Below, in pieces: positions 28,629-38,083 of a stretch of DNA of 38,083 nucleotides (positions within the stretch are counted from its first letter, which is position 1; every line of letters starts with the position of its first letter). The stretch spans positions 1-38,083 of the forward strand of contig DATCCQ010000254.1 of NCBI GenBank assembly GCA_036511185.1. Direction: 5' to 3'. The position numbers and the translations under genes are program-made. The notes under the pieces were generated by a model. It was not told the DNA's origin. It did not search any database and saw nothing but the letters and a program-made list of their open reading frames with translations. This DNA comes from Gaiellaceae bacterium (lineage in GTDB: Bacteria; Actinomycetota; Thermoleophilia; Gaiellales; Gaiellaceae).

Positions 28629-30635
28629 ATGTCTCACGACGCCGACAAGCTGATCCGCCAGCTCTCACTGGTCGCCTTTTTGATGGCTGAGCGCCGTCCG
28701 GTCACGGCTCGCGACGTGAAATCTAACGTCGAGGGATACTCGGAGATGTCCGATGAAGCCTTCGCTCGGCGCTACTACGCCGACCGCTCGGAGCTCACCT
28801 CGCTTGGTGTACCGCTTCGCTCGCAGCGGGACGAGTTCACCGGAGAGGAGCTCTACACGCTTCGCTCCGAGCAGTACTTCCTACCGCCCCTCGAGCTAAC
28901 CGACGAAGAGCTGGCAGCGTTGCAGACCTCTCTCTACCTGCTGGAAGGGAAATTCGCCTACGCCGAGCCCTTCCGATTGGCACTGCAGAACCTGGCTCTC
29001 GGTCGCCCCGGCTTCAACGAGCAGCCGACTACAACGGCCGTCCGCGTCGAGGTGCTCGATCCCGATTACACGCCCGAGACACCCGGGCGCCTAGGCAAGC
29101 TGGAGGCCGCCATCTCCAAGCAGCGAACGGTCCGCTTCGAGTACTGGTCGATCTCGCACGACACGCTTTCCGAGCGCGTCATAAACCCCTACGGGCTGCT
29201 CTCTGACAACGGGCTCTGGTACGTGATCGGCTTCGATCTCGAGCGCCAGGCGATGCGCACCTTCCGCGTCTCGCGCATCCGCTCGGACATCCGTTTTGCC
29301 ACCCGCAAAGAGCGCGACTTCCGCATTCCGCCAGAGTTCGATATCGATGAATACCGCGGGCGAGCTCCCTGGCAGATCGGAGCGCTCGTGGGCGAGGCTC
29401 AGATCGGTGTCGGGCGCGAGACGGCCTGGTGGGTCGAGCGCACCTACGGAAACGCCGGGCAGGTAGAGGATGGGGTCTTCACGACTGGATACTCCTCGCT
29501 CGGTCTGCTTGCGGCCTGGGTCTTACGTCAGGACGGACGCGCGATACCGCTGGAGCCGCCGGAGTTGCGCGAGGAAGTCAATGCAGCGCTGCGACTGGTC
29601 GAGAAGCGCCACTCCTCCGCGCCGCTCAAGCCCGCGCGAGAGTGCGATGAGGTGACAGACAGTGCGCAAGCGGCCGACCACTCCTCAGGCCCGGTTGCCC
29701 CGGAGCGCTTCGCGCTTCTGCAGGCCCTGCTCGCGCATCTTCTGACCGCTTGCGGCGAGGAGAACGAGGCGGAGATTCCCGCCAGCGAGATTGTCAAGAA
29801 CCTGCGCATCCCGCTCGAGGACCTCGAGGAGCATCTCTCGATGCTCAACCTCGTCAACTTCGGCGGCGGCTGCTACACCGTCTACGCGGAGCTCGACGGC
29901 GACACAGTACGCATCGACAAGGAGCTTTTTGGCGACACCTTCCGCGCATCGCCTCGCCTGACGCCGCTCGAGGCGCGGGCGATCCGGCTGGCGCTAGAGT
30001 TCGTGGGCCCGATGATCGCGGCCGACGCGCACACACCTCTGGAGCGTGTGCGACGGAAGCTCGAAGAGACCTTCGGGCAGTTCGAGCTTCTACAAACGCC
30101 GGAGCCGCAGGTGAGCGTGGCCGAGGAAGATCTGATCGCCCGCTTGGCCGAAGGCATCCGCGTGCGCGAGCTGGTCGAGCTGGAGTACCTGAAGGAAGGT
30201 GACGAAGAGGCCTCGCGGCGACTGACCGAGCCCTACGCGCTCGAGCGGAAGCTGCCCTTCTGGTACGTGCATACCTGGGACCGCACCACGGGCGGCGAGC
30301 GCAGCTTCCGCCTTGACCGGATGCGCAGCGCCAGGCTCACCGGCAAGAACTTCGAGCAGCGGCCCGGCTTCGAGCCGCGCGGGCTCCGCGATGCGCGCCA
30401 GGCGCACATTTGGTACTCGCCCAAGGTGGCCCGCTGGCGCCTGGAGCGAGGCGGCGCTAAAAGGCTCATCGACGGGGCCGCACTGGCCGAAACGGCGGTC
30501 GGAAGCCCGGAGTGGCTGGCGGGAGAGATCCTCTCGCACCGTGGGGAAGCCGTCGTGCTCAAGCCTGGTGACCTGCGCGAGCTCGTCGCTGCCAGAGCAC
30601 GAGAGCTGACCGCGGCTTTCGCCGCTACGCACTAG
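28629..30635 (+). CDS. pafBC: fused PafB-PafC-like transcriptional regulator (two tandem HTH-WYL-WCX modules)
   Basis: 668 aa. Module 1 has LIRQLSLVAFLMAERRPVTARDV (HTH) and ...VRFEYWSISHDTLSERVINPYGLLSDNGLWYVIGFDLERQAMRTFRVSRI (WYL). Module 2 has FALLQALLAHLL... and ...VELEYLKEGDEEASRRLTEPYALERKLPFWYVHTWDRTTGGERSFRLDRM (WYL). Confidence 0.85.
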   Translation: MSHDADKLIRQLSLVAFLMAERRPVTARDVKSNVEGYSEMSDEAFARRYYADRSELTSLGVPLRSQRDEFTGEELYTLRSEQYFLPPLELTDEELAALQTSLYLLEGKFAYAEPFRLALQNLALGRPGFNEQPTTTAVRVEVLDPDYTPETPGRLGKLEAAISKQRTVRFEYWSISHDTLSERVINPYGLLSDNGLWYVIGFDLERQAMRTFRVSRIRSDIRFATRKERDFRIPPEFDIDEYRGRAPWQIGALVGEAQIGVGRETAWWVERTYGNAGQVEDGVFTTGYSSLGLLAAWVLRQDGRAIPLEPPELREEVNAALRLVEKRHSSAPLKPARECDEVTDSAQAADHSSGPVAPERFALLQALLAHLLTACGEENEAEIPASEIVKNLRIPLEDLEEHLSMLNLVNFGGGCYTVYAELDGDTVRIDKELFGDTFRASPRLTPLEARAIRLALEFVGPMIAADAHTPLERVRRKLEETFGQFELLQTPEPQVSVAEEDLIARLAEGIRVRELVELEYLKEGDEEASRRLTEPYALERKLPFWYVHTWDRTTGGERSFRLDRMRSARLTGKNFEQRPGFEPRGLRDARQAHIWYSPKVARWRLERGGAKRLIDGAALAETAVGSPEWLAGEILSHRGEAVVLKPGDLRELVAARARELTAAFAATH

Positions 30636-31633
30636 AAGAGGCGCTCGTGGAGGCGACTCAGAGCCCAGCGGGCATGCTCGGCGAGTAACTCGTCTCCGCC
30701 ACCTGCGTAGCGCTCTAGCAACGGCTCGTGCTCACGAGCACCGGCACTGGCCATGGCCACCAGGGCGTTTCGGCGTAGGAAGCGCGGATCGCGGCGCGGG
30801 AAATAGAGCCGCTGGTAGCGCGCTACCAATTCCGCGTCGTCAGCCTTCAGCCAGCCTTCGAGTGAGACAAGCGGTTCTGCCCCGTCGTGCGCCAGCGCGG
30901 CTTTGCGCTTTTCGACCCCTCGGTTCCAGGGACAGACCTGCTGGCAGATGTCGCAGCCGTAGACACTTGCGCCCATTCGCTCGCGCATCGGCTCGGGCAT
31001 AGCCGTACGCGCCTGCGTCCAGTAGGAGAGGCAGAGGCGCGCGTCGAGCACACCCTCCTGCACAAGCGCGGCGGTCGGGCAGGCCTCGATACACAATCGA
31101 CAGGCGCCGCAGTGTCGCCCAAGCGGCTCCCCAGGCTCGAGCGCAACGTCGCTCACGAGCGTCCCGAGCACGATCCAGGAACCGAGCCGGGGAACTATTA
31201 CAAGCCCGTTCTTGCCGAAGAAGCCGAGACCGGCGCGTACAGCCGCCTCGCGATCAACGTGCTCGCTGGAGTCGACCAGGACGCGATAGGCGCCGCCGAT
31301 ACGCTCAGCCAGTGCCGCGAGCTTGAGCCGAAGCTCGGCGTAGTAGTCGCGCCAGGCGTGCCGCGCCAGGCGCCCCTCCCCCGCGCCCGGCTCGGGGCCC
31401 GGCAGATAATAGGAAAGCGCCGCGGAGACGACGCTGCGAGCGCCCTCGAGCAGGCGCTCCGGATGGCAGGAGAGCTCTGGTCGGGCGACCGTGAAGCTCA
31501 GGTCCGCGAACAGCCCCTGCGCCCGTCGCTCGGCGATCGCGCGCTCGGCGCTCTCGTAGGGCCCGGCCGGCGCCGCGGCCACCGCGTCCAAGCCCAGCTC
31601 CGAGGCGATCTCGCTGAGTCGAGCGGCATTCAT
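30632..31633 (-). CDS. queG: tRNA epoxyqueuosine(34) reductase
   Basis: 4Fe-4S motifs CGACRLCIEACP and CDICQQVCPWN, a YWTQ segment and C-terminal HEAT-like repeats. ATG 31633 (MNAARLSEIASELG) is preferred. The maximal ORF to 31861 would overlap the upstream gene and is Arg/Gly-rich. Confidence 0.88.
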   Translation of the reverse strand: MNAARLSEIASELGLDAVAAAPAGPYESAERAIAERRAQGLFADLSFTVARPELSCHPERLLEGARSVVSAALSYYLPGPEPGAGEGRLARHAWRDYYAELRLKLAALAERIGGAYRVLVDSSEHVDREAAVRAGLGFFGKNGLVIVPRLGSWIVLGTLVSDVALEPGEPLGRHCGACRLCIEACPTAALVQEGVLDARLCLSYWTQARTAMPEPMRERMGASVYGCDICQQVCPWNRGVEKRKAALAHDGAEPLVSLEGWLKADDAELVARYQRLYFPRRDPRFLRRNALVAMASAGAREHEPLLERYAGGGDELLAEHARWALSRLHERLF

Positions 31634-31704
31634 GACGGCATTCTGACGACCCCGATTGGATATTTCGGTAGCGACGCGAACGTAGGGCTGCCGGCAGCCG
31701 CGAC

Positions 31705-32007
31705 TCAGTAACCGAAACCGAGCAGGAGCTTGGCGTCCTCGGACATCCGCTCCGGTGTCCAGGGAGGATCCCAGACCAGCTCTAGTACCGCCTTCTCGAT
31801 CCCCGGTATCTCGCGTAGCGCTTCCAGGATCTGCTGGTGAATGAGCGGGCCGGCCGGACAACCGATCGAGGTCAGGCTGTAAAAAACCTTGACTTCGTTG
31901 CCCACGAATTTAACGTCGTAGAGAAGACCGAGCTCAACGATGTCCAGCCCCAGCTCCGGGTCGAAGACCTGGCGCAGAGCCTCGGTTACATCGTCGGTCG
32001 TGAGCAC
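31705..32007 (-). CDS. DUF59/MIP18-family Fe-S cluster assembly protein (SufT-like)
   Basis: 100 aa with a GTG start. Motifs are DPELGLDIVELGLLYDV and LTSIGCPAG (conserved Cys), and the C-terminus contains WDPPWTPERMS. Confidence 0.85.
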   Translation of the reverse strand: MLTTDDVTEALRQVFDPELGLDIVELGLLYDVKFVGNEVKVFYSLTSIGCPAGPLIHQQILEALREIPGIEKAVLELVWDPPWTPERMSEDAKLLLGFGY

Positions 32008-32022
32008 AGCCTCAGTCTATCT

Positions 32023-32064
32023 TCCGGCGAAAGTCGCCCGCAAAGCGGGCCTAGACTTTCGCCG
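32023..32064. other. 42-nt composite GC-rich hairpin (12-bp + 6-bp stems)
   Basis: CCGGCGAAAGTC (32023..32034) pairs with GACTTTCGCCGG (32053..32064). Nested inside, GCCCGC-AAA-GCGGGC (32035..32049) forms a second stem, followed by a 3-nt CTA bulge. It lies 16 nt upstream of the GTG of the DUF59 gene and has no U-tract on either strand. Confidence 0.6.
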
Positions 32065-32267
32065 GCGCAGATCCGTACGAGTCACCGCGCCTTCGGCGCG
32101 CGTGTCTCGTCTGCTCCTAGATGACGCGCTCGGCTCACCGCGGGTGTGATCAGTGTTCGCGGTGTAGAAGCCGGGGGGCGGCGTTAGGTTAGCCGCGCCC
32201 GCCATGTCGGTCGCGGCGGCCATCGGGTTCCGACCGGAGCAGCTACGCGGACGCTCGCCGGACTTCT

Positions 32268-33287
32268 CTAGTAACCGAGCAGGCGCACCTCTTCGCGCCG
32301 CTCACGGGCGAAGAAGTGAATGCTGTCGATGAAACGCACCCAGTTGCAGCGCGTACACATGACAAGGGTATGGGTACGGGCACTGTCAGCGAGGAAGCGA
32401 ACGCCGCGCAGGAGATCGCCACCCGAGACGCCGGTCGCGGCGAAGATGATCTCGCCCGGCACCAGGTCGGTCGTGCTGAAGATGCGCTCGATATCGTCGA
32501 TTCCGGTTGCTTTGGCCTGCTCGATCTCGCGTCTCGACACCGGCCAGAGCTGAGCCTGGAGCTCGCCTCCGAGGCAGCGAAGCGCGGCCGCGGTCAGCAC
32601 GGCCTGGCGCGTGCCGCCGATGCCAATCGCTAGATGGTCGTTGGTGCCGCGGATCGCCGCCGAGATCGAGGCTGTCACGTCTCCGTCGGGAATCAACTTG
32701 ATGCGCGCACCTGCTTGCCTTATCTCGTCGATCAGGTCGTGGTGACGAGGGCGATCGAGCACGATCGTGGTGATGTCGTTGGGGTTGCGTCCGAAGGCCT
32801 TGGCAATCGCGACGATGTTCTCGCCGACCGGCTTGCGCAGGTCGATCTTGCCACGAGCACGCGGCCCGACGGATATCCGCCGCATGTACATATCAGGAAG
32901 AGTCACGAACGCACCCGGCTCTCCGATGGCGATCATTGACATCGCGCCCGGGCCTCCCCGGGCCACGACCTCACGTCCCTCGAGCGGATCGAGAGCCAGA
33001 TCGACCGGCGTCCCGCCGGCGCCGATCTGCTGCCCGGCGGCAAGCCCTCCCTCGTCAGAGGCGCCGACGACGATACGACCGTCGATCGGGAGATTGGCGA
33101 GCGTGCTCTGCATCGCGGTGAAAGCAGCCTCCGCGGCGCCCTCGCGGTCGGCGCGGCCCAACCAGCGTGCGCTGGCCAGCGCGGCCGCGTCGGTAGCCCT
33201 GGCGTAGTGCGCGCAAATGCAGGTCGAGCCGGGCGGCTCTGAGACAGGAGCTGCTTTCTTCTTCCTATCTGTCTTGGACGTGCTCAT
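32268..33287 (-). CDS. glpX: class II fructose-1,6-bisphosphatase (GlpX type)
   Basis: 339 aa with ATDAAALASARWLGRADREGA, LALDPLEGR (metal and substrate site), IPDGDV and GIGGTRQAV segments typical of GlpX. It is the last gene of an ATGA-coupled operon. Confidence 0.88.
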   Translation of the reverse strand: MSTSKTDRKKKAAPVSEPPGSTCICAHYARATDAAALASARWLGRADREGAAEAAFTAMQSTLANLPIDGRIVVGASDEGGLAAGQQIGAGGTPVDLALDPLEGREVVARGGPGAMSMIAIGEPGAFVTLPDMYMRRISVGPRARGKIDLRKPVGENIVAIAKAFGRNPNDITTIVLDRPRHHDLIDEIRQAGARIKLIPDGDVTASISAAIRGTNDHLAIGIGGTRQAVLTAAALRCLGGELQAQLWPVSRREIEQAKATGIDDIERIFSTTDLVPGEIIFAATGVSGGDLLRGVRFLADSARTHTLVMCTRCNWVRFIDSIHFFARERREEVRLLGY

Positions 33288-34192
33288 TTCACCCCTTGTA
33301 CGCGCTCGGCGCCTTCCAGTACCAGCTCGATCACCGCGCCGACGGTGCGATCGACGTTCTCATTCTCTATCACCGGGACGCCAGATTTGCGAGCGTGCTT
33401 GAGCAAGAAGTCTTGAACCTGGCGAATCTCGCCGAGACTTTGGAGGTACTTCTCAACCGGGCGCACGCCTTCGGTAGCAAGGTCGCGCACGAAGAAGTTC
33501 GAGGCGTGAACCTCCTCGTTGTAGACCACGAGCTGGCATTGGACGACAAGCGCTCCCTCGATCTCGCACGGCAGCATCCCCGGAACCAGGTGCACGCCCT
33601 CGAGCACCATCGACCAGCCCTCCTCGATCGCACGGTCGATCGAAGCGCGCACTCCCACGAGCACGTTCTTCGTCTGCTGGAGGAAACCGCGGACAAGTGG
33701 GTCGCCCTCCTCGCGCTCGGCCTCCGGCAGCGCCTCCCAGGCCTTGAAGCTCGAGTAGTGGATCGTGGGCATGAACTCCTCGGAGAAAAAGGCGCGCATC
33801 GTCTGACGGATGAAGTCGGTCGAGGAGAGGCGCGTAATGCCGAGCCGGTGCGCGACCTCGGCGGCGATTGTCGTCTTGCCCGTGCCGGTGGCGCCACCGA
33901 TGAGCACGATCAACGGTATGTCGAGCTGATCGAGATCGTGGTAGCGGCGTAGGCGCTCGACCGCCTCGTGGCCCTCGACCGGGCCCAGTATTTCGATCGC
34001 TAGCTCGTGCAGGCGCTCGAGCTCGACAACGCGCTCGTCGCGCCTGGCCAGGTCGATCTCCACCTGCCGTGCCAGCTCGTAAGCGCGTACGCCGCCGACT
34101 CCAACGGCGATCAGCGCCCGCGCCATCAAGCCCTTCGAATAGGGAAGGCTTTCGTCGCCCAGCGGGAAGGGATTGTGGCGATGTTGGGTCAT
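33284..34192 (-). CDS. 2-phosphoglycerate kinase-like protein (COG2074)
   Basis: 302 aa with the N-terminal PYSKGLMARALIAVGV...AYELARQVE segment followed by the P-loop LIGGATGTGKTTIAAEVAHRLGI and STDFIRQ. This is the layout of archaeal 2PGK. It has ATGA overlaps on both sides. Confidence 0.75.
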   Translation of the reverse strand: MTQHRHNPFPLGDESLPYSKGLMARALIAVGVGGVRAYELARQVEIDLARRDERVVELERLHELAIEILGPVEGHEAVERLRRYHDLDQLDIPLIVLIGGATGTGKTTIAAEVAHRLGITRLSSTDFIRQTMRAFFSEEFMPTIHYSSFKAWEALPEAEREEGDPLVRGFLQQTKNVLVGVRASIDRAIEEGWSMVLEGVHLVPGMLPCEIEGALVVQCQLVVYNEEVHASNFFVRDLATEGVRPVEKYLQSLGEIRQVQDFLLKHARKSGVPVIENENVDRTVGAVIELVLEGAERVQGVK

Positions 34193-35481
34193 GCGACGGT
34201 CGCTTTCGCTCGCGCTTGCTTGGCCAGCTCGAGTAGCGCAGGCGCCAGCGCGGTCTCGCCCTCCAGCGGCACCAGCTCGTTGTCGATGAGCCCAACCTCC
34301 CGTCCACGCGCCACCGCAGCCTCGATCACAACGTCAACGGCGGCCGCCTTCAGCTCGACCAGGAAAACCTCGGCGTCGATCTGGGCCAACTCTTCGGCCA
34401 GTTCCTGGCGCCGGGCGAGATTGCCCGAGACGTGAACCACCTCGGCGCCGTGAGCGCGCTCCAGATGCTCGCCGAGCGAGCGAAGCGCCTTCTTCGGCGC
34501 TGTGGTGAAGAGCGCCACCTTCTTCCCGGCGACGGGCGCGAGCGGACGCGGGCGCATCGAGGTGGCGATCACCGGCAGATCGGGTCGCAGCGCGGCGATT
34601 GCGGCGCGAAGCTGATCGAGGCGCTCACCGGGCTCGGCGAAGCTCAGCACGAGCAGGTCGGAGATGAGAATGCGGTAGGCGTTCAGGTAGCCGCAGGCCA
34701 GCTCTGCGTCCTGGTGCGCGCTCACGACGAGCACGCGCCGATCAGTGGCGATCGGCGGCAAGGAAGCACCGCTTCCCTCGAAGATGACCAGCTCGGGATG
34801 GCGCTCGAGCGCCAGCTCAGCTGCCTGGGCCACGTTCGAATACCCGACCGCGCCTGCCAGGCCGCCGCCGCAACGGCGCGCCCCGACGCTGACGATCTCG
34901 CCCAGCAGGGCGTCCTCCAGATAGTCCGAAGCCGCGTGCTGACCCGAGCGAGCGAGCTCGAGTAGCTCCTCGACGCTCGGCGGAGTCTCGCGCAGCTCCG
35001 GCTCGGGCGGTCCGCCCCGCCCCATCGCCACAACTACGACGTCGAGCTGCTGCGCGCAAACACGGGCCAGCTGTATTGCCAGCGCCGTCTTCCCAACCCG
35101 CTTGCCGGTGCCGATCACACTCAGGCTGGGAAGGGCGAAAGGTTCGAGAGCAGGCGGATTAAAGCGGAAATCCGCGCCCACGTAGGGCAGCCCGAGCGCC
35201 AGCACGCGACTCACCTCAGCCAGACGTTCGCGCGGGCCTAGAACGGGCTCGTCCGAAAGATCGACAACGAGCTCGGGCGAGTAGCTCTCGACCCCCTGCT
35301 CGATCGAGGCGGCGAGCGGAACACCGTAGAGCTCTTCGCCCGTCTGCGCCGGCGAGCGAAGCTTCTCTCCGCCGCCCACGTTGACGCAGCAGACGAACTC
35401 GTAGGGCAGAGCGCTCAGCGCATCGCGCACGACCCGCGGATAGTGCTCGCCGTCGATCAGCGCGAGCGCAGCGGCCTTCAT
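34189..35481 (-). CDS. cpgS: cyclic 2,3-diphosphoglycerate synthetase-like protein
   Basis: 430 aa. The conserved blocks are LIDGEHYP, DLSDEPVL, GTGKRVGKTA (P-loop), VAMGRGGPPEPE, HAASDYLEDAL, RRCGGG, EGSGASLPP, LFTTAP and ELKAAAVDV. They match my recollection of the methanogen cDPGS family. It is adjacent to a 2PGK-like gene. Confidence 0.7.
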   Translation of the reverse strand: MKAAALALIDGEHYPRVVRDALSALPYEFVCCVNVGGGEKLRSPAQTGEELYGVPLAASIEQGVESYSPELVVDLSDEPVLGPRERLAEVSRVLALGLPYVGADFRFNPPALEPFALPSLSVIGTGKRVGKTALAIQLARVCAQQLDVVVVAMGRGGPPEPELRETPPSVEELLELARSGQHAASDYLEDALLGEIVSVGARRCGGGLAGAVGYSNVAQAAELALERHPELVIFEGSGASLPPIATDRRVLVVSAHQDAELACGYLNAYRILISDLLVLSFAEPGERLDQLRAAIAALRPDLPVIATSMRPRPLAPVAGKKVALFTTAPKKALRSLGEHLERAHGAEVVHVSGNLARRQELAEELAQIDAEVFLVELKAAAVDVVIEAAVARGREVGLIDNELVPLEGETALAPALLELAKQARAKATVA

Positions 35482-36284
35482 CGAGTAGTGACCTCGTCCT
35501 CGATCGACGTGGTGTACTTGTGGAACTCGAGCGTGTCGGTATCGAACTCGATGATGCGCTCGATTCCGTGGAAGGGGTAGTGGCGATCGACCTCGATCCT
35601 CTTCCCGCTGAGCTTGATCACGTTGTAACAGGGCCTGATGTTTCCGCGCAGTCGCAGCGACGAGACCGTCCCCGCGTTAACGACGAACAGACTCTCCAGC
35701 TTCCAGGCATAGGGAACGTGCTTGTGGCCGCACAGAACGAGATTTACGCCCGCGCGCTGCAGGCACTCGATCGCGTCGCCGGCGTCGTGCACGATATTGC
35801 GCTCCCGGCCGGTACCGGGCACCGGCAACAGATGGTGATGGAGGACGAAGATGCGCAGCGAGGCCGAGCGCGCGAACTGCTCCTCGATCCAGCGGTAGCG
35901 GCCGCGCCCAATCTGCCCGTAGTCAAGATCGGGAGCGGTGGAGTCGATCGCGACGATGCTGACCGGGCCCTTGTGCAGGACGGAGTTGCGCTCACCGAAG
36001 AGCTGCTCGAAGTGGACGTAGCCGACGTTGCGAGCGTCGTGGTTGCCCGGGATGACGACCATGCTCGGGCACTCGATGCGATCGAGGTAGGCCCGCGCCT
36101 GCGCGTACTCGCCCTTGAAACCGAAGGAGGTCAAGTCGCCCGAGCAGACGACCACATCGGGTGCGAGATCGTTGATCTCCGAGATGGCACGCTCCAGCAG
36201 GTTGGGGGCGAAGTATTGTTCGCCGCAGTGCAGATCGGAAATCTGGGCGATTCTGAAAACGCGACCGTCGTTCCGGCCCGGCAT
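35478..36284 (-). CDS. calcineurin-like metallophosphoesterase (CpdA/class III phosphodiesterase-like)
   Basis: 268 aa with the full motif set D-x-H (ISDLHCG), GD (CSGDLTS), GNHD, HHH and GHKH. Its stop overlaps the cpgS-like start (ATGA). Confidence 0.88.
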   Translation of the reverse strand: MPGRNDGRVFRIAQISDLHCGEQYFAPNLLERAISEINDLAPDVVVCSGDLTSFGFKGEYAQARAYLDRIECPSMVVIPGNHDARNVGYVHFEQLFGERNSVLHKGPVSIVAIDSTAPDLDYGQIGRGRYRWIEEQFARSASLRIFVLHHHLLPVPGTGRERNIVHDAGDAIECLQRAGVNLVLCGHKHVPYAWKLESLFVVNAGTVSSLRLRGNIRPCYNVIKLSGKRIEVDRHYPFHGIERIIEFDTDTLEFHKYTTSIEDEVTTR

Positions 36285-36393
36285 GGCCGAAGTGTATGCC
36301 GCGCAGAGCAGTTGGGGAAATATCGGCTTCGCTCGAGCTCCCGCAAAGGTGGCGCTCGGTAGCGTCCGACCGTATTGCTACGCTTGCCTGTAG

Positions 36394-36762
36394 ATGGGCT
36401 TCGAAAGCGCCGATTTGCAGGCAGATCGCAGCTCCAAACCCCCCCGGTTCGCGAACCAGGCTGAGGTTGAATGCGCCCGCATCCTCGACTATTACCGAAT
36501 CGCCTGGGAGTACGAGCCCACCTCTTTCGTGCTCGAACGCGACGAGGAAGGCCGCGTCAGCGAGGCTTTCACGCCCGACTTCTACCTTCCCGAGCAGGAT
36601 CTCTACCTGGAGATCACGGTGATGAAACAGTCGCTCGTAACGCGCAAGAACCGCAAGCTGCGCAAGCTACGAGCGCTGTACCCCGGAGTACGCGTCAAGC
36701 TCTTCTACCGGCGCGACGTTCAGCGCCTGGCCGAGCGCTTTCGCCTCGATCTGGCCTCCTAA
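36394..36762 (+). CDS. small hypothetical protein, PD-(D/E)XK nuclease-like (tentative)
   Basis: 122 aa with high GC3. It has AEVECARILD (helix with Glu), then FTPDFYLPEQDLYLEITVMK, resembling the E...PD...ExK core of restriction-endonuclease-fold proteins. The C-terminus is basic. Confidence 0.5.
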   Translation: MGFESADLQADRSSKPPRFANQAEVECARILDYYRIAWEYEPTSFVLERDEEGRVSEAFTPDFYLPEQDLYLEITVMKQSLVTRKNRKLRKLRALYPGVRVKLFYRRDVQRLAERFRLDLAS

Positions 36763-36909
36763 AGCTCATAGAGCGGCGGCGGGACGCTTTCCTTCCAAAC
36801 CACGACATGAGCCCGGATCGGGAAGGATGTCGGAGTAGAGGAGGAAGAGACGACTGAGAGCCTAAGCATCGGTGAGGTCTATCTGCGGCGAGAGGAGATC
36901 GCCGACCGT

Positions 36910-37401
36910 GTGCACGAGCTCGGAGCCGAGATCGCCCGCGATTACTCGGATAGGGAGCCGATTCTGGTGGCGCCGCTCAAGGCAAGCGTGGTCTTCCTCG
37001 CCGATCTCTCACGTGCGCTCCCTATCCCGCATACGATCGACTTCGTCGAGCTGGCAGGCTTCACTGCGGCGGCCATGGGTGGGCAGCAACGGATCCGCCT
37101 GCTCAAGGATCTCGACATCGATGTCACAGGCCGTGACCTGATCGTGGTCGAGGACGTGGTCGACACGGGGCTCACGCTCAACTACCTAACGCGGGTTTTC
37201 GCGCTCCGCGCGCCCGCCTCGATCACCATCGCAACGCTCTTCGACCGTCCCTACCGACGCCTGGTCGACGACCTACCGGTTCGCTACGTCGGTTTCACGG
37301 TCCCGGACGAGCTCTTCGTCGGCTACGGCTTCGACCTCGCCGAGCGCTTCCGCAATCTCCCCGACATCCACCTCACGACAGGTAAGACAGCGGATCAATA
37401 G
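36910..37401 (+). CDS. hpt: hypoxanthine(-guanine) phosphoribosyltransferase
   Basis: PRPP-binding motif LIVVEDVVDTGLTL, C-terminal DELFVGYGFDLAERFRNLPDI. GTG 36910 is the first canonical start. Family-like N-terminal sequence continues upstream in frame (see finding), so the true start may be 36883 or 36868. Confidence 0.88.
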   Translation: MHELGAEIARDYSDREPILVAPLKASVVFLADLSRALPIPHTIDFVELAGFTAAAMGGQQRIRLLKDLDIDVTGRDLIVVEDVVDTGLTLNYLTRVFALRAPASITIATLFDRPYRRLVDDLPVRYVGFTVPDELFVGYGFDLAERFRNLPDIHLTTGKTADQ

Positions 37402-38083
37402 GCGCCCCGTTGACTCGCACCTCGAAATGCAGGTGCGGCCCGGTGGAGTGCCCGGTCGAGCCCACGTAGCCGACTACCTGACCGCGTGAAACCGTCTGCC
37501 CCGACGAGACAGCCAGCTGCGACTGATGCCCGTAGGCCGTGGCCAGCCCGTTTCCGTGATCAATGACGGTCAGGTTGCCGTAGCCGCCTTCCCAGCCCGC
37601 GTAATTCACCGTTCCGCTCGCGGCGGCATAGATCGGAGTCCCCTGCGCGGCGCCTATGTCGATGCCCTCGTGCATCCGTCCCCAACGCATGCCGTAGGGG
37701 CTGGTTAGTACGCCCTGAACCGGCCAGATCAGCCCGGCGGCTGAAGGCGTGGCGCTGGAATGGGAACCACTGCTGCGTAGACGGGCAGCAATGTTGGCGC
37801 TACCGGCCTGGAGCGCCGCGATATCGGCCAGCCAATTCGCTTTAGACTCACGCACGCTCGCCAGCGTCTCCTGCTTTGTCTTGCGCTCGTTGCGCAGTCG
37901 TGCGCGGTTCGAGCTCAGGCGATCGCGGGTCGCAAGCACGCGCGAGGCCTTAAGCACCACTATGTGCGTCTCCGTGTCGATACGTACGAGCAACCGATGC
38001 GTTCGATTGCGAATCGCAGTCCAGCGGTGCTTGACCCTCATTGCCTGCTCGGCGACATGCCGGTCGTGAGCCGAGACGGCCTC
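37373..38083 (-). CDS. M23-family metallopeptidase with N-terminal coiled coil (5' end probably outside the window)
   Basis: LytM-domain motifs HEGIDIGA, YGHQS and GHSTGPHLHFEV. The frame remains open from ATG 38041 to the window edge (…EAVSAHDRHVAEQA-M…). The upstream part is coiled-coil as in EnvC-like proteins, so the gene likely extends beyond 38083. It converges on hpt and overlaps it by 29 nt. Confidence 0.85.
   Translation of the reverse strand, partial: EAVSAHDRHVAEQAMRVKHRWTAIRNRTHRLLVRIDTETHIVVLKASRVLATRDRLSSNRARLRNERKTKQETLASVRESKANWLADIAALQAGSANIAARLRSSGSHSSATPSAAGLIWPVQGVLTSPYGMRWGRMHEGIDIGAAQGTPIYAAASGTVNYAGWEGGYGNLTVIDHGNGLATAYGHQSQLAVSSGQTVSRGQVVGYVGSTGHSTGPHLHFEVRVNGAPIDPLSYLS

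Follow-up and report, generated by a model that had tools for sequence, protein, structure and literature searches.

The metallophosphoesterase (MPE) gene that opens a four-gene operon in a Gaiellaceae bacterium is translationally coupled to a homologue of cyclic 2,3-diphosphoglycerate (cDPG) synthetase (cDPGS), and the two genes are co-inherited across Actinomycetota. The operon lies on contig DATCCQ010000254.1 of assembly GCA_036511185.1, within a stretch of 38,083 nucleotides that we refer to as the window; the host genome is a 1.85-Mb metagenome-assembled genome (MAG) that is 92% complete. MPE is in our view a partner dedicated to the actinobacterial cDPGS; with middling confidence we take its substrate to be cDPG or, less probably, 2,3-diphosphoglycerate (2,3-DPG). 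Its gene context and the chemistry of its fold suggest that it would serve as a cDPG hydrolase, a role for which an earlier note on this DNA, made from the sequence alone, had put it forward.

The operon is a chain of four overlapping genes on the minus strand, which runs from MPE through cDPGS and a 2-phosphoglycerate kinase (2PGK) homologue to a GlpX-like gene:

35478..36284, minus strand: metallophosphoesterase (MPE; P0002, 268 aa), ATG start, first gene of the operon
34189..35481, minus strand: cDPG synthetase (cDPGS) homologue (P0003, 430 aa), its start overlapping the MPE stop (ATGA)
33284..34192, minus strand: 2-phosphoglycerate kinase (2PGK) homologue (P0004, 302 aa), overlapping cDPGS by 4 bases
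32268..33287, minus strand: GlpX-like protein (P0005, 339 aa), last of the overlapping genes

At the first junction, which reads ...CGATGAAGGCC, the TGA of MPE and the ATG of cDPGS have four bases (ATGA) in common, and the stretch in which the MPE stop and cDPGS start overlap is CGATGAAGG. The cDPGS/2PGK and 2PGK/GlpX-like junctions are likewise 4-base overlaps, as read from the open reading frame (ORF) coordinates. The earlier note had described a calcineurin-like phosphoesterase of 268 residues with a full motif set, first in its operon and with its stop codon overlapping the start of the cDPGS-like gene. This description is borne out on each count: five motifs can be read in the translation and Pfam Metallophos matches the protein, the four common bases are seen in the sequence, and upstream there is only a 109-bp gap followed by a gene on the opposite strand.

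Given the presence of cDPGS, its ligand residues and matches to 2PGK models, the premise of a cDPG operon is reasonable. P0003 matched the solved cDPG synthetases at 4e-86 (PDB 9sxb) and 7e-79 (Methanothermus fervidus, 8ork/8oru), and P0004 matched two NCBIfam 2PGK models at 5.5e-84 and 1.4e-80, both under their cut-offs. In M. fervidus cDPGS, 2,3-DPG and Mg are bound by E45, K46, K145, R146, T150 and D208 (PMC10690619), and these residues align with E39, K40, K127, R128, T132 and D186 of P0003. On this alignment the operon's cDPGS looks functional, and the operon may make cDPG in its Gaiellaceae host. The two genes that follow MPE are thus clear homologues of the M. fervidus pathway (2PGK and cDPGS; PDB 8ork, 8oru), with the synthetase ligands kept. 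That pathway, however, is described as having two enzymes and no phosphoesterase partner, and the host here is a Gaiellales bacterium of soil type; the literature restricts cDPG to thermophilic methanogens (PMC10690619).

The GlpX-like protein passes the TIGR00330 cut-off, and its Arg105 (in DPLEGR) occupies the position of the class II fructose-1,6-bisphosphatase (FBPase) threonine, aligned with T84 of Mycobacterium tuberculosis GlpX. This threonine is catalytic in the M. tuberculosis protein and is equivalent to T90 of Escherichia coli GlpX. At this position the operon-linked GlpX-like genes that were checked all carry R, A, S, L, H or G, and no other glpX, class I or class V FBPase was found in the 92%-complete genome. 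The GlpX-like protein is possibly something other than an FBPase; 2,3-DPG is a conceivable substrate.

To describe the association of MPE with cDPGS we used a phylum sample of 401 Actinomycetota genomes, calling cDPGS at E <= 1e-10 and MPE at E <= 1e-45. cDPGS was present in 229 genomes and MPE in 227; comparison of the two tables gave 225 genomes with both genes, four with cDPGS only, two with MPE only and 170 with neither. These tallies include 14 unpublished genomes (G001, G018, G048, G082, G088, G120, G148, G174, G226, G239, G268, G318, G343 and G391), without which both genes were found in 212, cDPGS only in three and MPE only in two. Because related genomes are not independent, the counts overstate the number of independent events. 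The pattern is also seen family by family: tallies for the two genes are nearly equal (10/10, 31/31 and 16/16 in the families labelled f16, f19 and f30), seven families (f2, f4, f6, f14, f15, f20 and f27) have neither gene, and in four more (f13, f18, f22 and f26) the genomes without one gene are also without the other. In an order-level sample of 31 genomes, a high-scoring MPE was present in all 21 that were cDPGS-positive, and seven were without both. cDPGS homologues span roughly 40 actinobacterial families, and many of the genomes that carry them are small (1.3-3.8 Mb).

The two genes are also kept side by side. In 108 of the 109 published genomes for which both positions were listed, MPE directly preceded cDPGS on the same strand and lay no more than about 470 bp from it; the positions were compared by eye, and unpublished genomes were left out. 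In the exception, G146, the best MPE match is at the start of another contig. All 80 Gaiellales loci have MPE directly upstream and 2PGK downstream of cDPGS. Scripted comparison of the other families placed MPE upstream of cDPGS in 29/29 loci (one of them, L097, from an unpublished genome), and the same arrangement occurs on a bacterial contig of 28% GC (L161). The loci nearest to the operon are all from Gaiellales or Gaiellaceae MAGs. In a few soil contigs other genes stand between MPE and cDPGS (L190:238-6094 and L188:2231-9225); one encodes an unknown 554-aa protein, the insert in L188 is a PAS-GGDEF-EAL protein on the opposite strand, and L190 has a GlpD-like dehydrogenase upstream.

The MPE-cDPGS pair is tighter than the known cDPGS-2PGK pair. 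The loci of family f19 run from MPE to cDPGS and, after a short gap, a GlpX-like gene, and they contain no 2PGK; these genomes do have a 2PGK gene, but hundreds of kilobases off or on another contig, as in G056, where it lies at 0.81 Mb and cDPGS at 1.68 Mb. That MPE and cDPGS are kept together without a nearby 2PGK points to the product of the synthetase, rather than that of 2PGK, as the object of the association.

We put most of the discordant cases down to assembly breaks. Of the four genomes with cDPGS only, two (G195 and G281) have the gene at a contig end and a third (G391) is unpublished and gave a weak match. The fourth, G019, is a real exception in which an S49 peptidase gene takes the place of MPE. 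In that locus (L204, G019:C10:20500-29500) an MGH1-like glycoside hydrolase gene and the S49 peptidase gene stand ahead of cDPGS, and transaldolase and rho come after the 2PGK, which includes an ATP-cone domain. Outside the sample, plasmid pSRIMHP of the cultured Streptomyces rimosus (NZ_CP100398.1, 458089-459381; L203) has a solitary cDPGS-like gene that is 52% identical and bears the annotation 'hypothetical', with no MPE or 2PGK within 5 kb. No member of the MPE subfamily was found at E <= 1e-25 in the whole plasmid collection, pSRIMHP included. Database proteins in which MPE and cDPGS appear fused were considered as evidence of linkage and rejected: each is a singleton whose coverage is partial and patchy, most come from single assemblies, and for this reason they are probably frameshift read-throughs of the overlapping genes.

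Some actinobacterial genomes hold two to four MPE copies, and we evaluated their relationships with a quick maximum-likelihood tree, in which copies were called linked or unlinked from tblastn coordinates. The actinobacterial MPEs all group in a single clade (SH-aLRT 97), where linked copies predominate. Six unlinked copies form a clade of their own (SH-aLRT 98), sister to the linked copies of family f19 in an enclosing group with a support of 100. From this topology the linkage looks ancestral in Actinomycetota, and most unlinked copies appear to derive from one lineage-specific duplication. The unlinked copies examined (L197:5450-8924, L146:1223-4929 and L159) follow a CapA-like (PGA_cap) gene and precede a gene for an S-adenosylmethionine (SAM) hydroxide adenosyltransferase, surroundings that have no relation to cDPGS. 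Lower-scoring paralogues of about 50% identity occur in the Gaiellales genomes G418 and G428, where no cDPGS was found.

By its modelled fold and its predicted ligands, MPE is a real and intact two-metal phosphoesterase. Its motifs are D17-L-H19, G49-D50-L, G80-N-H-D83, H149-H-H151 and G186-H-K-H189, and the predicted metal ligands are D17, H19, D50, N81, H150, H187 and H189; the subfamily has the signature HHHLLPVPGTGRERN...DAGD and GHKHVP..W. Pfam Metallophos (PF00149) matches over all 191 profile positions (E = 2.3e-19; 71 bits, with the cut-off at 21.5). AlphaFold models the protein confidently (mean pLDDT 91.5, pTM 0.91), with the beta-alpha-beta-alpha-beta sandwich fold of the superfamily, and a Foldseek search with the model gave 367 PDB matches at E <= 0.001, of which the top matches viewed were all metallophosphoesterases. 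The best structural matches in the PDB were GpdQ and Rv0805 (TM-score 0.71, 19% identity), with purple acid phosphatases next. GpdQ was also the best PDB sequence match (4.4e-9), and an alignment to it places the HH ligand pair correctly. A search of the ESM Atlas returned only MPE's own actinobacterial clusters.

These results bear on whether MPE belongs with the ordinary class III cyclic-nucleotide phosphodiesterases (CpdA/Icc/Rv0805 type), its place beside cDPGS being a conserved accident. The class III pattern of D..H, GD, GNHD, H and GHxH is complete, the fold is common to MPE and to Rv0805 (PDB 2hy1, 3ib7), which is among the best structural matches, and close relatives carry the database names 'CpdA' or 'Icc'. 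The earlier note's description of the motif set as CpdA-like is therefore apt for the motifs, but not for the family: the NCBIfam models for CpdA (NF008359, 41.4 bits against a cut-off of 225) and SpdA (NF050112, 41.6 against 400) fall far short. An NCBIfam model for an anti-phage phosphoesterase matched in part (70 against a cut-off of 420) and the LpxG model matched the N-terminal part weakly (4.9e-9). MPE is only 19% identical to Rv0805 and GpdQ, and the loop after the HHH motif is unlike that of GpdQ. MPE has the same two-metal sandwich fold and ligand pattern as GpdQ of Enterobacter aerogenes (PDB 2zo9, 3d03, 2dxl), but reads PVPGTGRERN where GpdQ has PLGNAQMD, and its gene context is different. 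In addition, the phyletic pattern of MPE follows cDPGS, which would be unexpected for a general signalling enzyme. Weighing these points, we regard a cyclic-nucleotide phosphodiesterase as improbable, the least probable of the accounts considered here.

The metal ligands are invariant across 93 linked MPE orthologues, as are ten charged residues, of which nine are basic (R85, R99, R127, R160, R162, K188, R211, R213 and R234) and one is acidic (E161). The basic residues probably lie near the active site, and such a basic pocket would suit a small polyanionic substrate. Other members of the superfamily, including LpxH/LpxG, ApaH and the ADP-ribose/CDP-alcohol diphosphatase, can hydrolyse P-O-P bonds in small molecules, and opening cDPG would require the same chemistry. 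The likeness to these enzymes is one of mechanism only, as MPE has no close sequence kinship with them and their substrates are unrelated.

A dedicated partner of cDPGS need not be a degradative one. MPE could have a biosynthetic role, for example by dephosphorylating a precursor or side product, in which case the operon would end in a compound other than cDPG, or a structural one, as a synthetase subunit without hydrolytic activity. Its gene comes first in the operon and is translationally coupled, and in the more distant Gaiellales loci it is more conserved than cDPGS (66-77% against 54-62% identity); the pairing of a synthase with a phosphatase is, as is generally known, common in compatible-solute pathways. 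The archaeal two-enzyme pathway, however, needs no third component, and M. fervidus cDPGS alone fully converted 2,3-DPG to cDPG in vitro (PMC12136491). The retention of all catalytic residues argues against a purely structural role, and the apparent MPE-cDPGS fusions, being singletons with patchy coverage and probably frameshift artefacts, lend it nothing. We consider a biosynthetic or structural role unlikely.

MPE homologues are not confined to Actinomycetota. Among 1.8 billion representative proteins, 253 clusters matched at E <= 1e-30, with named members from Methanobrevibacter, Methanobacterium, Nitrososphaeraceae, Micrarchaeia, Wukongarchaeota and a WOR-3 bacterium. When archaeal MPEs were searched against the host genome, the operon MPE, at 196 bits, far outscored any paralogue (65 bits). 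Proteins of about 500 aa from Pyrococcus, Palaeococcus and Bathyarchaeota (P0503, P0505, P0504, P0136 and P0139) contain two MPE domains in tandem. The first domain retains all the motifs and the PxPxTGRERN signature, and the second is degenerate, having lost DxH and changed GNHD to GHND and GHxH to GHGxN. Viral contigs scanned with an alignment of the tandem proteins yielded no relative.

Besides actinobacterial contigs, a metagenome scan with a Methanobacteriales MPE alignment recovered eleven low-GC contigs whose MPEs are 54-70% identical to the Methanobacterium protein, and whose neighbouring genes include an archaeal-type geranylgeranyl reductase. Methanobacteriales is the order of the classical cDPG producers. 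No cDPGS or 2PGK match was found within any of these contigs. In all eight that are sufficiently long, the MPE homologue stands beside an ORF for an unknown 216-aa protein and a gene for a protein with helix-turn-helix (HTH) and PhoU domains:

L117:6125-8801, likewise L118-L123 and L126: MPE homologue, 216-aa ORF and HTH-PhoU gene as neighbours in Methanobacteriales-type contigs

Four of the contigs also have PstS, PstC or PstB genes no more than a few kilobases away. The archaeal MPE homologue appears to belong to a conserved phosphate-regulon module, a context that fits a cDPG phosphate store and a general phosphate-scavenging esterase equally well. The earlier note had made conserved linkage to cpgS a test of its proposal; with these contigs included, the linkage held within Actinomycetota (both genes in 225 of 401 genomes and neither in 170, adjacent in 108 of 109) and failed in the Methanobacteriales-type contigs.

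MPE could accordingly be read as a general phosphate-mobilising phosphodiesterase or pyrophosphatase for some common metabolite (a glycerophosphodiester, a nucleotide-derived compound or a polyphosphorylated small molecule), which has been recruited to various phosphate operons and owes its place in the cDPG operon to shared regulation. Beyond the HTH-PhoU neighbour in 8/8 long contigs and the pst genes near four, R160, E161, R162 and K188 do not differ between the linked, unlinked and archaeal groups, being fully kept in the Methanobacteriales proteins too, and the best structural match, GpdQ, is a promiscuous glycerophosphodiesterase. Shared regulation alone nevertheless leaves unexplained why MPE stands directly upstream of cDPGS, often overlapping it, in about 40 families, and why the two genes are lost together. 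Furthermore, no pst or phoU gene was found in the annotated stretch of the window beside the operon. We judge this general esterase to be a rather doubtful account, though a stronger one than either of the two alternatives above.

For cDPG breakdown itself, a review summarises the hydrolase activities found in Methanothermobacter, from Sastry 1992 and van Alebeek 1994, and describes cDPG as a phosphate store and the hydrolase as inhibited by phosphate and K+ (PMC1224877). The likeness of MPE to the Methanothermobacter thermautotrophicus hydrolase lies in the proposed reaction, cDPG to 2,3-DPG, and the inhibition of that hydrolase by phosphate fits the PhoU/pst neighbourhood of the archaeal MPE homologues. 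On these grounds we infer a link between MPE and the M. thermautotrophicus activity. The earlier note held that the gene for cDPG breakdown had not been firmly assigned; in agreement with this, the literature searched, which covered few subscription journals, contained neither an assignment of a cDPG hydrolase gene nor a phosphoesterase partner, and relative to it the proposal of MPE as a cDPG hydrolase is new. The Gaiella occulta genome paper makes no mention of cDPG genes.

Several observations weigh against MPE as a partner dedicated to cDPG. Two of the Methanobacteriales-type contigs (L117 and L121) are without cDPGS or 2PGK across about 8 kb on either side of the MPE homologue. The same active-site signature is present in the unlinked paralogues near CapA-like and SAM-hydroxide-adenosyltransferase genes, and again in Gaiellales genomes G418 and G428. 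These archaeal homologues and unlinked paralogues weaken the cDPG-hydrolase reading of the earlier note. Conversely, G019 and S. rimosus have cDPGS-like genes without a nearby MPE. A hydrolase made in fixed proportion to the synthetase would waste ATP unless it were regulated, and such regulation is assumed here. Finally, the Methanothermobacter hydrolase is reported in the review to be membrane-bound (PMC1224877), whereas the model of MPE shows a compact and apparently soluble globular domain in which no long helix suited to spanning a membrane is seen, although the protein may bind peripherally.

Our preferred reading, that of a dedicated cDPGS partner, allows us to propose a mechanism, in which we infer the substrate and the direction of the reaction. 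MPE would be a cytoplasmic two-metal phosphoesterase, translationally coupled to cDPGS, that most likely opens the cyclic pyrophosphate of cDPG by hydrolysis and so regenerates 2,3-DPG; that it instead dephosphorylates 2,3-DPG is less likely. In both cases synthetase and hydrolase together would control how large a phosphate- and energy-rich pool the cell keeps, in analogy to glycogen operons that combine genes for synthesis and breakdown.

Two further features adjoin the operon:

36285..36393, no strand: presumed promoter gap of 109 bp between MPE and the divergent gene
36394-36762, plus strand: conserved protein P0469 (122 aa), without a Pfam or NCBIfam match, divergent from the operon

A TACACT hexamer (in window positions 36285-36300) ends 6 nt ahead of the MPE ATG, and no Shine-Dalgarno sequence was seen before MPE by eye; given these two observations, the operon mRNA may be leaderless. 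A sigma-70 consensus scan of the gap upstream of MPE found no promoter, a terminator scan gave only one terminator-like site, below the mean of shuffles, and an Rfam search of 30000-38083 had no match. P0469 is present in 78 of the 81 loci searched and is 93-97% identical in the close Gaiellales relatives listed, where it is more conserved than MPE. Elsewhere in the window, 28629-30635 on the plus strand encodes a 668-aa protein with two WYL domains, two WCX domains and a PafC-type HTH, which looks like a fused PafB-PafC-type regulator.

The breakdown of cDPG was measured in methanogens about thirty years ago, and MPE offers a concrete gene candidate for it. An enzymatic route to cDPG has been described (PMC12136491), and since the compound can now be made enzymatically the candidate is directly testable. 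If the proposal is true, MPE would complete the cDPG cycle and explain how cells draw on a phosphate-rich cDPG pool, and biotechnological production of cDPG would need to avoid the host hydrolase. It would also support the view that cDPG is made and turned over by very common soil bacteria and not by heat-loving archaea alone. More tentatively still, and with less confidence than we place in the partnership with cDPGS, the MPE subfamily as a whole may be the long-missing cDPG hydrolase, forming a make-and-break pair with the synthetase in many mesophilic Actinomycetota and giving Pho (PhoU/pst)-controlled release of phosphate from cDPG in starved Methanobacteriales. In that case cDPG would be a widespread storage metabolite rather than a protectant of thermophiles only.

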